64,000 nucleotides of DNA from NCBI GenBank assembly GCA_031284265.1, contig JAITAG010000039.1, positions 2,983-66,982 of the forward strand. The letters run 5' to 3'. The notes under the pieces are model-generated. The model was not told the DNA's origin. It was given only the letters and a program-made list of their open reading frames with translations, and did not search any database. Positions 2,497 to 62,255 of the stretch are shown piece after piece (position 1 is the first letter of the stretch; each line of letters starts with the position of its first letter). Made by a program: the position numbers and the translations under genes. Source of the DNA: Puniceicoccales bacterium (GTDB taxonomy: Bacteria; Verrucomicrobiota; Verrucomicrobiia; Opitutales; LL51).

Positions 2497-2745
2497 AATC
2501 CCCGCCATGGGATCCATCCCCTGGACCTGGATTACGGACCTTCCACCGGACAATGCCCGGTGGGAGGTCCGCAGGGGGGGCCCGGAGGCCCCCCGCGGCT
2601 TCGCCGCGGGGCGGGCTGATGCCGCGCTGCGGCCCAGCCAGGCGAAAGTTTCGCCTGGCTGGGCCGCAAGACAAGGTCAAGGAGTTTGCGACTCCTTGCG
2701 GAAGTCCAGAGGGCATAGCCCTCTGATTTGCAAATTTCGCATTGC
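2476..2745 (+). repeat. GC-rich hairpin-module mosaic, array 1 (order B-A-F-G-C-D-E)
   Basis: Successive palindromes: CTAAGGGCttctcGCCCTTAG; CCATGGGATCCATCCCCTGG; GGACCTTCCACCGG..CCGGTGGGAGGTCC (2536-2570); CCCCGCGGCttcGCCGCGGGG; GGCCCAGCCAGGCG..CGCCTGGCTGGGCC (2631-2665); CAAGGAGTttgcgACTCCTTG; CAGAGGGCataGCCCTCTG. Confidence 0.9.
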
Positions 2746-2777
2746 TATTGGGAAATAGCATTCATGATTTTGTGCAG

Positions 2778-4052
2778 ATGATTTGGATCTATCGATTACT
2801 ATTTCTGCCGATTTTTATCATATTCTTGTTGAAAAATTTACCAAAAATATTCAAACGAGGAGGTTACGGCATTGATTTACGGCATCGGTTTGGATTTTTT
2901 CCGCGGCTACCGAAGATAGAAAAAAAACGCCTATGGATTCAGGCGGTAAGCATGGGAGAAGTGAATGCAATTGTCCAATTAATTGCATTATTAAGTGAGC
3001 GTTACGAAATCGTACTTACCTCAACGACACCAACGGCACGAAAAATTATCATCGAAAAATTAACGAAAAATGTCCTATTCCATGGTTATTTCCCATGGGA
3101 TTTTTGGTTATTCAGTTGGATAGCGTGGCGACGTATTTGTCCCGATGCAGCTATTCTCGTAGAAAGCGAGCTATGGCCAGAACATATTTGGCAGGCGAAG
3201 CGACGTAAAATTCCCGTTTTTTTGATCAATGCGCGTTTATCGAATTGCTCATTTCGACGTTACCAGAAGTTTCCTCGATTAGCTCATTGGATTTTTGAAA
3301 AAATCGATTTCATTATCGCTTCTTCCGAGCAGAATCTCGAAAGAATCGCCGCGTTTCGTGATAAAGTTATTAAATATTTTGGAAATATAAAATTCGATAT
3401 TCCAATACGATCGTTATCGCAGGAAACGCGAAAAAATCTCAAAAAAGAACTTGGATTTTCTGAAGATTCATTTGTGTTACTAGGATGTTCGACTTGGCCC
3501 GGCGAAGAAGCCATACTATTGAAAGCTTTTCGTAAAATAAAAGCAAGAAAAAGTGAGCATATGTCCAAAGATTATAATCTTTTAATCGTACCGCGTCACG
3601 CCGAACGCCGTAAAGAATTGGTTCACTGGTTACAAAGCGAAAATGTTTCGTTCTGGCAGCGTTCAAAAGGCATTGCGGAAGGTAAATTTGACGTTTGCTT
3701 GGCAGATACAACGGGAGAATTAGCATACTTAGTTCAAGTCGCTGATTTAGCCTATATCGGAAAAAGTTTGGCACCGAATGTTGGCGGTCAAAGTCCGTTG
3801 GATGCGGCGATGGCAGGTGTTCCTGTAATTTACGGCAATCGCATGACGAATTTTTGCGATATTTGTGCCCAGCTAGAACAAGAAAACGCAGCGGTTAGGA
3901 TAGAAAGTGAAAAAGATGTGATCAATACCGTCGCTGAATTGGTAGAAAATATCAAAATTCGGCAAATTTTATCGAAAAATATTAGCAATTGGTTTAAAAA
4001 AAATCAGGGTGCATCGACAAAAATTGCTAACTTTATTCGAAAAATAATATAA
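2778..4052 (+). CDS. waaA: 3-deoxy-D-manno-octulosonic acid (Kdo) transferase
   Basis: 'LWIQAVSMGEVNAI' matches the KdtA 'HAVSVGE' motif and the C-terminal glycosyltransferase region 'GGQSPLDAAMAGVPV'. The ORF opens at TTG 2742 inside the repeat, so ATG 2778 is preferred. Confidence 0.85.
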   Translation: MIWIYRLLFLPIFIIFLLKNLPKIFKRGGYGIDLRHRFGFFPRLPKIEKKRLWIQAVSMGEVNAIVQLIALLSERYEIVLTSTTPTARKIIIEKLTKNVLFHGYFPWDFWLFSWIAWRRICPDAAILVESELWPEHIWQAKRRKIPVFLINARLSNCSFRRYQKFPRLAHWIFEKIDFIIASSEQNLERIAAFRDKVIKYFGNIKFDIPIRSLSQETRKNLKKELGFSEDSFVLLGCSTWPGEEAILLKAFRKIKARKSEHMSKDYNLLIVPRHAERRKELVHWLQSENVSFWQRSKGIAEGKFDVCLADTTGELAYLVQVADLAYIGKSLAPNVGGQSPLDAAMAGVPVIYGNRMTNFCDICAQLEQENAAVRIESEKDVINTVAELVENIKIRQILSKNISNWFKKNQGASTKIANFIRKII

Positions 4053-4061
4053 TCTTGTAGG

Positions 4062-4617
4062 GTAACTGCCAGAAGGGTCCGCCCTATGAGCTTATCATGG
4101 GGCTCCGCCCTCTGGACTCCCGCAAGGAGTCGCAGACTTCTTGACCTCATTTTGCGGCCCAGACAGGCGAAAATTTCGCTTGTCTGGGCCGCAGAGGTAA
4201 AATTTATCTTTGCCGAAGCGCTGCGCGATGCGCAGCGCTTCGGCAAAAAAGTCAGCCCGCCCGCGGCGAAGCCGCGGGCGGGGCCATTGGGCCCCCTGCG
4301 GACCTCCCGCCGGGCATTATCCGGTGGGAGGTCCCGTAATCCAGGTCCAGGGGATGGATCCCCTGGCGGGGATCCTAAGGGTGAGGAGCCCTTAAGTAGA
4401 GCTTACCATGGGGCGCTGCCCCATGACCCCGCAAGGAGTCACGGATTCCTTGACCTCATTTTGCGGCCCAGACAGGCGAAAATTTCGCCTGTCTGGGCCG
4501 CAGAGGTAAAAGGCACTTCTGGCCTGCTCCCTGGGCGTTGTCCAGGGAGCAGGCCAGAAATCCCGATCCAGGGGATGGATCCCCTGGATCGGATCCTAAG
4601 GGCGAGGAGCCCTTAGA
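4062..4617 (-). repeat. GC-rich hairpin-module mosaic, array 2 (two tandem units, reverse orientation)
   Basis: Unit 1 runs E/K-D-C(4156-4190)-I-G-F-A-B. Unit 2 runs K-D-C(4465-4499)-H(4521-4555)-A-B. These are the same modules as array 1, reverse-complemented. Confidence 0.9.
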
Positions 4618-60597: not shown

Positions 60598-61026
60598 CTA
60601 TACTCCAAAAATTGTCAAATTTGATCCCCGAGGTACTTCTCGAACGTAATTAAAAGCGTCTGCCCAAAATGCCAAATTCGCAACAAACGATTCCATCTCT
60701 CCAAATAGGTTGTCGGTAAAGAGTTCCGCTAAGGACCGTTTGCGAAATAAGCAAAGCCGATTACTTTCACTTTCAATGGAAAGTATGTCATCGGTATCCA
60801 TAATTCGTGCAAAATTCCATTGCAAAATATTTTTTAGTTTTGGTAAATCATTTTCCGTAATTTCCCCTGCAAAATAACCCCAAAAAACAAGAAATCGCCC
60901 GTCTAAATAAGCGATTTTTAGCTCCAAATGCTCGTCAATGATAATTTCGCAAACGGAATCTTCTACATTGTGATCTTCCACGCGAAAATACCGCACTAAA
61001 AATTCAATTGCTTCCCCCCATTCCAT
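60598..61026 (-). CDS. putative class I type III secretion chaperone (CesT/SycE-like)
   Basis: 143 aa from 'MEWGEAIEFL'. It is acidic and follows the pattern '..IIIDEHLELKIAYLDGRFLVFWGYFGEI....LPKLKNILQWNF......LSIESESNRLCLF' typical of T3S chaperones. Its stop abuts the secretin start. Confidence 0.45.
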   Translation of the reverse strand: MEWGEAIEFLVRYFRVEDHNVEDSVCEIIIDEHLELKIAYLDGRFLVFWGYFAGEITENDLPKLKNILQWNFARIMDTDDILSIESESNRLCLFRKRSLAELFTDNLFGEMESFVANLAFWADAFNYVREVPRGSNLTIFGV

Positions 61027-61163
61027 CAACGATTCTTTTTTTACTAAAAAAATTCTAATGTGCAAGTGTGAAATTTTATAATCAAAAATTTTAAATATCA
61101 AAATAGTCATTTTTCCACGAAAAATCATTGCGACTTATTGCATAGTTTTAATAGAAATAATTC

Positions 61164-61961
61164 GTGTTTGAAAAAATTAGCAGTAGGCATAATGAGAAAA
61201 TAAAGTTTATTGATAAACTTAAAAAATCGGCTAGTCGAAAAAGACTTGGAATCTTTCTCGTCGAAGGCTTTCGAGAAATTTCCCGCGCTCATTCGCGCCA
61301 ATTTATCACAGAATTACTGTTTTGTGAGGAATACTTTACGAATCACAAAACGTTTCCTTCCTTCATCCAAACGCTCATAGACGATCAAATTCCACTTACA
61401 CAGGTTACTCCAGAGGTTTATCAAAAAATTTCACTTCGAGAAAATGGCGATGGACTAATTGCTCTCGCTCGCTCCCGTAGCGTATCACTGAATGAATGCG
61501 TTCCTCCCGAAAATGGGCTTTTTATTGCCACAGAAAATGTCGAAAAGCCAAGTAATTTTGGCGCAATCGTTCGAACAGCAGAATCAGCAGGTGCCAACGG
61601 CGTTATCGTCCTTAACCATTCCACGGAAATTTTTAATCCCAATGCCATTCGCAACTCTCAGGGTACCGTTTTCTTCGCTGACATTTACGACGCTACAACG
61701 GAAGAATTTTTAAATTTTACACAACAATACCAGTTGTCAATTTATGTTACCTCACCCCAAGCAGAAAAACTATATTTTGAAAAAGATTTCAAAAAAGGTG
61801 CCGCCATTCTCGTCGGATCGGAAGACAAAGGTGTTTCCGATTTTTGGTTTCAACAAAACCATACCATTCGCATCCCCCAAATAGGTAAATCGGATTCTCT
61901 CAACGTCTCCATTGCAACTGCTGTCGTCCTTTACGAATGTGTCCGTCAACGCTCAATGTAG
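61164..61961 (+). CDS. SpoU/TrmH-family RNA 2'-O-methyltransferase
   Basis: 'FLVEGFREI', 'VEKPSNFGAIVRTAESAGANGVIV' and 'SLNVSIATAVVLYE'. Non-ATG (GTG) start. Confidence 0.8.
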   Translation: MFEKISSRHNEKIKFIDKLKKSASRKRLGIFLVEGFREISRAHSRQFITELLFCEEYFTNHKTFPSFIQTLIDDQIPLTQVTPEVYQKISLRENGDGLIALARSRSVSLNECVPPENGLFIATENVEKPSNFGAIVRTAESAGANGVIVLNHSTEIFNPNAIRNSQGTVFFADIYDATTEEFLNFTQQYQLSIYVTSPQAEKLYFEKDFKKGAAILVGSEDKGVSDFWFQQNHTIRIPQIGKSDSLNVSIATAVVLYECVRQRSM

Positions 61962-61976
61962 TTCTTAAAAATTTCT

Positions 61977-62255
61977 CCTACGGACTGTTCGCCCTTAGAA
62001 TCCCGCCAGGGGATGTCTGCCCAGAGGGTTCCGCCCCTCTGGATTCCCGCCAGGGGATCCATCCCCTGGACCTGGGATTTCCGGCCTGAGCCCCGGGCAA
62101 CGCCCAGGGCTCAGGCCGGAATGGCCCGAACAGCTGCGGCCTAGCCAGGCGAAGAATTCTCCTGGCTAGGCCGTAAGAAGAGGTCAAGGAGTCCATGACT
62201 CCTTGCTGGGTATGGGGCAGAGCCCCATGAGTAGCTACCTAAGGTGTATCCTTAG
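61977..62255 (+). repeat. GC-rich hairpin-module mosaic, array 13 (B-[A interrupted by E]-A-H-C-D-K-B')
   Basis: A duplicated TCCCGCCAGGGGAT at 62001-62014 and 62045-62058 flanks an E hairpin. CCGGCCTGAGCCCC..GGGCTCAGGCCGG (62081-62119); GGCCTAGCCAGG..CCTGGCTAGGCC (62138-62172); CAAGGAGTccatgACTCCTTG; ATGGGGCagaGCCCCAT; CTAAGGtgtatCCTTAG contains the gatA stop. Confidence 0.9.

Follow-up and report, generated by a model that had tools for sequence, protein, structure and literature searches.

Arm covariation in a mosaic palindromic repeat of termite-gut Puniceicoccales points to the DNA level rather than to RNA

We analysed a 64,000-nt stretch of the genome of a Puniceicoccales bacterium (Verrucomicrobiota; contig JAITAG010000039.1, positions 2,983 to 66,982; hereafter the window, numbered from its first letter), in which two kinds of hairpin, modules C and H, had been predicted to change both arms of their stems together from copy to copy. 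We found that C and H fill the two slots with long stems, of 14–21 bp, in the composite unit of a non-coding, interspersed mosaic DNA repeat, and that the signal they carry points to the DNA level, not to RNA. We lean towards the view that the covariation of the arms arises from template switching at the DNA level together with the exchange of whole hairpins between copies.

Between the genes of the window, which is AT-rich (~42% G+C), lie twelve short G+C-rich blocks that consist almost wholly of hairpins (38 GC-rich hairpins in the 12 arrays). Aligned with one another, the blocks are full or partial copies, in either orientation, of one composite unit of 257–345 bp, in which 8–10 hairpins follow each other in the fixed order A-B-H/D-E-F-(G)-C-I-J/K, G being optional. 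The units occur singly or as head-to-tail tandems, mostly at the 3' ends of genes, and their end modules A and J/K look alike (CYWARGGGC...GCCCYWWRG). The window contains 17 perfect stems of at least 12 bp, compared with 0–1 in first-order Markov simulations. When units were folded as single-stranded DNA (ssDNA), z-scores of -12.5 and -15 were obtained, the former for the unit at 2476..2725 (-98.5 kcal/mol).

All stems that the original prediction had cited for C and H were recovered where it had placed them. Module C is found at 2628-2668 (stem of 19–20 bp), 4462-4502 (19 bp, perfect), 7750-7786 (14 bp), 9131-9178 (outer stem of 17 bp and an additional inner one, with a single T bulged out), 30680-30724 (21 bp) and 62137-62173 (13 bp), to which we add two copies at 4153-4193 (one G·T) and 48372-48412 (one C·A) as well as two decayed ones at 28762-28785 and 38885-38925. 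Copies of module H lie at 4517-4559, 38813-38857, 44266-44308, 48501-48544, 55066-55110 and 62079-62121. In the alignment the H slot is also filled by three hairpins, at 2537-2571, 4300-4334 and 7642-7678, which thus represent more divergent variants of the H stem. The predicted paired substitutions that keep base pairing intact are borne out for both modules, far beyond chance. In the eight window copies of C, 97.4% of the cells are paired and 9 of the 19 pairs have changed on both sides, values that none of 500 shuffles attained in either respect, and partners slid along the stem gave only 26–48% pairing. Module H behaves in the same way: nine copies show 91.6% paired cells (0 of 500 shuffles as high), and in 10 of 20 pairs both bases have changed, a value that a single shuffle out of 500 attained. 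The C loop, which had been described as constant, does vary, reading GAAAGTTTC, CAAAGATTTC, GAAGTTTTC or GAAGAATTCT. This 'loop' is itself nearly palindromic, so that only 1–3 nt remain unpaired at its centre.

Relatives were sought with the pattern of module I (GGTCAAGGAGTN5ACTCCTTGC) in one genome per species (GTDB). A total of 104 stretches matched, and all of them (104/104) belong to seven metagenome-assembled genomes (MAGs) named 'Puniceicoccales bacterium'; L-numbers below (e.g. L019, L039, L069) refer to loci among these stretches. Orthologous proteins encoded at the MAG loci are 70–90% identical to those of the window, and from their isolate codes we infer that the seven MAGs are of termite-gut origin. 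A metagenome scan with the same pattern returned one solitary, chance-like and unrelated match in an AT-rich contig, and two scans of viral contigs returned none. Since all 104 matches fall in the seven Puniceicoccales MAGs, with nothing related in the metagenome and viral scans, the repeat family is confined to one clade of termite-gut Puniceicoccales. We found no account of it in the searchable literature.

At about 100 of 108 module I sites a hairpin of 15–20 bp ends 5–8 nt upstream of I. C copies were sampled through this adjacent module only, and their sampling is thus independent of C pairing. The sequence of the C stem differs in nearly every species and also between copies: it is GGCCCAGCCAGGCG in the window, GGCCGAGCCCGGCGC in the MAGs Cc175 and Pcl387, GGCCAAACCATGCG in Gsp477_bin70, GCCAAAAGCAGGGG in Gsp477_bin23, AGCCCAATAATTATGTAT in Po218 and AAGAGTCCCGCGGC in Nc350. 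Nevertheless, among 90 distinct C copies from eight genomes 87% of the stem pairs are Watson-Crick pairs, compared with 56% after global shuffling, 25–31% for slid partners and 72% when shuffling was restricted to within species (0 of 1000 shuffles reached 87%), and most stem columns hold three to four different Watson-Crick pair types. The covariation extends to the copies in related genomes. Module H, anchored in the other genomes via module B, again shows the same behaviour as C.

The original prediction had proposed that G:U-type pairs restricted to one strand might identify a functional RNA strand. We took a census of 662 G+C-rich hairpins in 685 kb from eight genomes, comprising ~8,400 stem pairs; these hairpins are almost all intergenic. 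No such strand was found: G·T mismatches are as frequent as A·C mismatches overall (46 vs 49), on the sense strand of co-directional gene pairs (7 vs 10) and on the forward strand of the element itself (24 vs 19). This lack of wobble tolerance argues against a functional RNA, whose stems would bear G:U far better than A·C. The hairpin centres have a similar bearing. Of the 662 hairpins, 88% leave no more than 3 nt unpaired at the centre and 3% leave 4 nt, TTC and GAA being the commonest loops, compared with 56% tetraloops and 3.5% triloops among the hairpin loops of rRNA (PMC8794818). In fact, many C copies are complementary right into the centre, past what a folded hairpin could use. The units show no preferred orientation with respect to transcription (15 vs 8); an apparent orientation bias at contig edges proved to be an ascertainment artefact, which follows from the place of module I close to an end of the unit and from the breakage of contigs within arrays. 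Rfam at gathering thresholds identified tRNAs only, and an E-value scan of one array gave only generic miRNA-like hairpin matches far below gathering scores. Although C has a T-run upstream and an A-run downstream, only a few module copies qualify as intrinsic terminators, and with 25 terminator-like sites in 20 kb, compared with 21.6 ± 5.2 in shuffled sequences, we reject this identity for want of enrichment. Thus, covariation cannot be read here as evidence of a functional RNA.

Several observations tell more directly how the palindromes are maintained. The C loop occurs in both orientations, GAA and TTC being both common in Cc175 (5 vs 3) and Pcl387 (7 vs 5), on two closing-pair backgrounds, and AAACTTT and AAAGTTT both being present in Gsp477_bin70 (7 vs 2). 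H loops are likewise found in both orientations (atc/gat, gtt/aac, atca/tgat). By contrast, 128 copies of module I, with its stem of 8–9 bp, show essentially no inversion, the sole reverse-complement pair being CATTG/CAATG with two copies each; loop flips are thus seen only in the long-stem modules. One exact flip was found at an orthologous locus, where the hairpin at L069 5405-5445 has the loop ttc and that of L019 has gaa between identical stems. As C hairpins with a module I on both sides (L029, L074) were counted twice in this tally, once per orientation, the argument rests mainly on the GAA and TTC loops of Cc175 and Pcl387 and on the orthologous flip. In addition, we found three giant palindromes of ~110–190 bp in total, with arms of 94, 78 and 54 nt that are 91–97% complementary, centred exactly on C in the arrangement J-I-C-I'-J' (L029 978-1167, L074 3112-3268 and L093 7757-7865). 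Inverted dimers of the unit occur only in the form of these rare giant palindromes.

We compared the divergence of array parts with that of codon positions in one close species pair (Cc175 vs Pcl387), for which 24 orthologous hairpins could be aligned without gaps. Third codon positions differ by 8.4%, first by 2.9% and second by 2.0%; long stems differ by 9.7%, linkers by 9.6%, short stems by 4.8% and the loops of long hairpins by 33%. The primary sequence of C and H thus drifts at the neutral rate while complementarity holds at ~97%, and the loops of long hairpins, which diverge three to four times faster than the long stems, are hypermutable. In 297 gap-free orthologous pairs we counted 13 single changes and 2 compensated doubles (~0.1 complementary doubles expected under independence), i.e. 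single mismatches predominate at this distance. In some orthologous hairpins several compensated pairs have changed within one hairpin. A further case is the array at 48311..48601, downstream of the window gene at 47511-48305, which is found at the same position next to the orthologous gene in the window, in Pcl387 (L039) and in Cc175 (L051). The rare module I loop GTA is common to the window and Pcl387, and Cc175 has ATA, one base off. The three C stems at this array differ (GGCCCAGCCCGGCG, GGCCGAGCCCGGCGC and GGGCAAGCCATGCGC), each pairing with its own partner arm, so that the C stem at positionally orthologous arrays has been replaced wholesale. The mismatch cases and the wholesale replacement of stems therefore indicate two DNA-level routes to 'compensation', namely copying of one arm from the other and transfer of whole hairpins.

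These observations fit the following sequence of events. A point mutation would first create a mismatch, nearly neutral in the short term. Template switching during replication, within the palindrome or across it, would then remove the mismatch by using one arm as template for the other, and in about half of these events both arms would end up with the new base. Such copying could also invert the loop and lengthen the palindrome outward. Whole hairpins, with both arms together, would in addition be exchanged among the many copies of a genome by conversion or re-insertion, which would lead to species-specific consensus stems. According to three studies (PMC8604942, PMC5941160, PMC8794818), template switching homogenises the arms of inverted repeats and inverts the spacer, more strongly so with longer arms. 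Because this published behaviour matches the loop flips, the palindrome growth and the rates seen here, we infer that template switching is the main mechanism; the hairpins may also play a part in propagating the element. The original prediction had named selection on structure (in RNA, or in a cruciform or ssDNA) and templated copying as the possible sources of the covariation. The covariation itself stands and its RNA interpretation is disfavoured, while local hairpin-templated copying at the DNA level gains direct support from loop inversions, giant palindromes, neutral stem drift and hairpin replacement.

Some points weigh against this account. Template switching was not observed directly, and arm-to-arm recombination or repair in a cruciform would leave the same footprints. 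A mismatch that recurs on a single arm of H (T·T, see below) should have been erased by efficient arm correction. From species to species C keeps its length, position, foot and tip, which implies that some selection acts on the structure or on bound factors as well. Finally, the orthologous sample described above is small, and loop orientation in MAGs assembled from short reads is open to population heterogeneity.

Some features speak for a constraint on structure. The foot of C (GCGGCC/GGCCGC) is among its conserved parts, and variation is mostly confined to the middle of the stem; what the long hairpins preserve is limited to foot, tip and pairing ability. In all eight genomes the sequence of modules I and B is invariant, with conservation above that of neutral sites. 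The stem of I (CAAGGAGTC/GACTCCTTG; e.g. 2678-2698 and 30652-30672 in the window) encloses a hypervariable 3-nt loop that is pyrimidine-rich on the forward strand. One variant at 44474-44492 (CAAGGAAC cat GTTCCTTG) departs from the consensus on both arms, which shows that even the otherwise invariant module I can be compensated. The T·T mismatch of H lies at a fixed position (ACC[T]CGGGC / GCCCG[T]GGT), is uncompensated and always affects the B-proximal arm, the opposite arm being nearly invariant. It occurs in about one third of the copies in two species that are 83% identical (L016, L020, L026, L034, L043 and L056 in Gsp477_bin70; L025, L057 and L091 in Ct408_bin149), and the mirror state was never seen. 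This mismatch, the conserved foot and tip of C, and modules I and B resemble recognition determinants of hairpin-binding transposases (PMC8266576). Judged by their conservation, the short hairpins, notably I and B, are probably protein-recognition sites. The conservation of hairpin geometry, foot and tip, together with the mismatch that returns at one fixed position, makes it likely that the DNA element is still under some constraint at the level of structure.

This brings us to the main rival explanation, a process like that of REPINs, i.e. doublets of repetitive extragenic palindromic (REP) sequences forming hairpins. The hairpins would be ssDNA substrates of a structure-specific enzyme, such as a REP-associated tyrosine transposase (RAYT) or other HUH transposase, or another recombinase; only copies able to fold would propagate, and covariation would follow from the birth and death of copies. 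Compensatory changes in the spacers of REPIN hairpins have been reported to be common (PMC3116915), and the conserved foot and tip of C around a variable mid-stem, together with the invariance of I and B as expected of protein-recognition sites, would fit such a scenario. The mismatch on one arm of H resembles the conserved bulge of Escherichia coli REPs and the extrahelical T of the IS608 hairpin (PMC8266576). The species-specific consensus of the stems would fit as well, and so would the presence, absence and orientation of arrays, which vary at one intergenic site in three species: the site downstream of the gene for an acyl carrier protein (ACP)-like protein is empty in the window (~46130-46340), holds K and I in Pcl387 (L039 1640-1800) and holds A and B in the other orientation in Gsp477_bin70 (L008 1-80).

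However, the expected partners of such a system did not turn up. A phmmer search with E. coli RayT against all open reading frames (ORFs) of at least 100 aa in the window and the 104 loci (685 kb, part of each genome) gave a best E-value of 1.6, a single query sequence having limited reach. GTAG adjoins 4 and CGTC 6 of 637 hairpins, i.e. there is no conserved REP tag. An all-against-all search for a multicopy transposase ORF returned only spurious ORFs running through arrays and an unrelated pair of paralogues in Cc175 (L067/L096), and among the sampled loci no B...I pair encloses an ORF-sized insert as a long autonomous version of the element would. We also rejected the ORFs at 8178-8894, 28942-29739 and 29797-30570 as partner proteins. 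They are prepilin-like paralogues of the type found in the Planctomycetes-Verrucomicrobia-Chlamydiae (PVC) group. Their N-terminus is of the prepilin type (FTLVELM...), a DGH..W motif is conserved at the C-terminal end, and no Pfam match was obtained at E ≤ 1e-5; many further paralogues of this family are encoded in the MAG loci, often beside arrays. Moreover, arrays are positionally conserved between species that are ~80% identical, so that many copies have long been in place and are not new insertions, and a REPIN-like process alone leaves the loop flips, the centres below the sterically possible loop size and the giant palindromes unexplained. We therefore consider it unlikely as the source of the covariation.

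A role at the RNA level appears improbable. The arrays would be transcribed as parts of 3' untranslated regions (UTRs) and would stabilise mRNAs, attenuate expression or serve as small RNAs, with selection on RNA structure. They do lie preferentially downstream of genes (106 GC-rich hairpins between convergent, 108 between co-directional and 36 between divergent genes), their predicted folding is very strong (z = -12 to -15), and REPs and BOX elements are known to influence the transcripts of which they form part (PMC3733652, PMC3049150). Yet enrichment at 3' ends is equally expected if insertions are merely tolerated there, the stems diverge at the neutral rate, and the RNA reading is disfavoured because G·T does not exceed A·C, centres are short, both orientations occur, and neither an Rfam match nor an excess of terminators was found.

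Operators in duplex DNA for dimeric proteins (nucleoid, gyrase-like or IHF-like), whose two-fold symmetry the palindromes would mirror, are the least credible source: BIMEs, the bacterial interspersed mosaic elements, do bind gyrase and IHF, many modules are perfectly symmetrical almost to the centre and the short ones are invariant, but stems of 18–20 bp exceed typical half-sites, and C and H half-sites differ at many positions within one genome, each matching its own partner, for which a single sequence-specific protein does not suffice.

A bolder reading, which we put forward tentatively and hold to be rather unlikely, would see here a new class of multi-hairpin DNA element, mobile or self-maintaining, with its own candidate structure-specific machinery that is neither RAYT nor GTAG-based. 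I and B would be its recognition sites, C and H free-running palindromes kept perfect by template switching, and the T·T mismatch would mark the active strand. Taking up ~5% of the genome and lying at synteny breakpoints, such an element might have altered the order of genes, and the 3' ends of some of them, in a lineage of symbiont-like Verrucomicrobiota.

The twelve arrays are distributed over the window as follows, with C and H at the positions given above. Forward units lie at 2476..2725 between a PAP2 gene and waaA (A 2476-2496, B ~2500-2535, H/D, E 2575-2594, F 2591-2611, C, I 2678-2698, J 2707-2725), at 7583..7845 (A 7583-7603, B 7601-7630, H/D, F 7693-7723, C, I 7798-7818, then J), at 44208..44565 (A 44208-44228, B, H, G ~44340-44378, an F-like hairpin at 44399-44421, the I variant, then J and K) and at 61990..62250 (a J-like hairpin at 62021-62042, B 62050-62069, H, C, I 62185-62205, K). 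A full-length reverse unit with the optional G is found at 4060..4396 (I 4124-4144, C, G 4209-4247, F 4256-4282, H/D, B 4340-4375, A 4376-4396), followed head to tail by a second, shorter reverse unit at 4397..4616 (K 4407-4425, I 4433-4453, C, H, B 4563-4592, A 4596-4616). Further reverse units lie at 30588..30835, between a pilin-like gene and the convergent pheS (K, J 30624-30644, I 30652-30672, C, an F-like hairpin, B, A), and at 48311..48601 (J, I 48339-48359, C, G 48439-48472, H, B, A). Partial units were found on the forward strand at 9080..9240, adjoining two tRNA genes (an F-like hairpin, C, I 9185-9205, a K-like hairpin), and at 38775..38940 (B, H, decayed C, truncated I), and on the reverse strand at 28731..28874, partial or decayed (J 28731-28754, only the right half of C, an F-like hairpin, G 28841-28874), and at 55040..55165 (H, B, A 55145-55165), the latter being the sole array of the window between divergent genes. 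Seven of the 11 array-bearing intergenic regions of the window are convergent. In Gsp477_bin70 the unit measures 257 bp and is repeated head to tail; at L040 1-751 (and also at L034, L060 and L073) the whole unit recurs with a period of 257–261 bp in 2.9 copies of 92% identity, and with an identity of only 92% these tandem copies are not recent duplicates.

The genes of the window are ordinary housekeeping genes (pheS, pheT, hisS, tpiA, rpoD, dnaG, waaA, gatA and rRNA methylases). On the minus strand, a holB-like ORF at 4456-5445, similar to the DNA polymerase III delta' subunit, runs through the unit at 4397..4616 up to its own stop codon, with ~53 codons inside modules A, B, H and C (4456-4616); the repeat may have replaced its original 3' end. 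'Genic' hairpins were rejected as in-frame insertions, as they mostly reflect the stop-to-stop definition of ORFs. Also on the minus strand, 57979-60597 encodes an 872-aa type III secretion secretin of the SctC family (318 bits), which, in a genome whose nearest relatives are Puniceicoccales MAGs, hints at a host-associated lifestyle.

Two window genes, 38941-40086 (minus strand) and 61164-61961 (plus strand), are separated by 22 kb and both have an array at the 3' end; in Pcl387 the same two genes are convergent neighbours sharing one array (L086 5334-7640). Other synteny breaks fall at arrays too, which suggests that rearrangement is mediated by the repeats, and MAG contigs very often end inside arrays. 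The only empty/filled comparison bearing on a target-site duplication (window vs L039 vs L008) has flanks too diverged to set the boundaries of the insertion. Exact-protein look-ups for close strains with clean empty or filled sites gave short contigs of sample SRR14710909 or nothing.

The repeat family calls for caution in genome scans, as DNA palindromes can yield textbook covariation that every shuffle test calls significant although no functional RNA is involved. Three checks separate the two: the balance of G·T and A·C, how large the unpaired centre is, and whether loops invert. The interpretation offered in the original prediction is partly supported: the covariation exists, but the evidence traces it to the maintenance of DNA palindromes and not to a functional RNA, so that on its own it says little about function. 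The family further offers a natural experiment on whether perfect stems come about by selection on independent pairs of mutations or by templated copying. With hundreds of paralogous hairpins with stems of 18–20 bp, in genomes that are 80–98% identical and with conserved neighbouring modules as anchors, it constitutes a resource from which the rates of mismatch creation, mismatch resolution and loop flipping could be measured directly. It also adds to the Verrucomicrobiota a large repeat family that fragments MAG assemblies, most contigs ending inside arrays, and that coincides with rearrangement breakpoints.

Among known systems, the REP/BIME/REPIN elements and the modular BOX elements appear closest in behaviour. 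The former are likewise GC-rich extragenic palindromes of 20–45 bp, present in high copy number and in mosaic arrays with conserved linkers, and compensatory changes that preserve the hairpin have been reported for REPINs (PMC3116915, PMC3733652, PMC2817692). They also lie mainly between convergent or co-directional genes and have a species-specific consensus. The hosts of REPs are Proteobacteria, however, whereas ours belongs to the Verrucomicrobiota (Puniceicoccales), and the repeat has neither the GTAG/CGTC tag nor a RAYT in the DNA sampled; with the tag test failing, we reject membership of the GTAG/CGTC REP superfamily. A strict BIME or REPIN identity is rejected as well, because the unit consists of 8–10 distinct hairpins in a fixed head-to-tail order over 257–345 bp, with a tandem period of 257 bp, and not of a single REP alternating or in inverted doublets.

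MITEs, short for miniature inverted-repeat transposable elements, are similarly small, non-coding, highly base-paired, intergenic and variable in presence between species, and the likeness of A and J/K is somewhat reminiscent of terminal inverted repeats. In contrast to MITEs, the present elements are GC-rich in an AT-rich genome, and no target-site duplication could be defined; neither a partner insertion sequence (IS) with matching ends nor an autonomous copy was found in the DNA sampled, so that a MITE identity is not demonstrable. Inverted repeats maintained by template switching (quasipalindrome correction) share the homogenisation of arms, the inversion of the spacer, the effect of arm length and multi-base 'compensatory' changes in one event (PMC5941160, PMC8604942, PMC8794818), and these footprints are all seen in the Puniceicoccales repeat. 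Quasipalindrome correction is a process and not an element family, though, while here it would act on hundreds of paralogous hairpins of one repeat family, with exchange between copies on top of it.

The BOX elements of Streptococcus pneumoniae (boxA-boxB(n)-boxC) and the Neisserial mosaic elements are, like our repeat, modular composites of conserved order with optional or repeated internal modules. BOX in particular resembles it in extensive folding, in enrichment between convergent genes and in having no clearly known mobilising enzyme (PMC3049150). No module sequence is common to both; the Puniceicoccales family has many more modules, each a near-perfect palindrome, and its unit is a row of independent hairpins, whereas BOX folds mainly via pairing of boxA with boxC. 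Taken together, the family is a previously undescribed mosaic palindromic repeat that is REP/BIME/BOX-like in behaviour.

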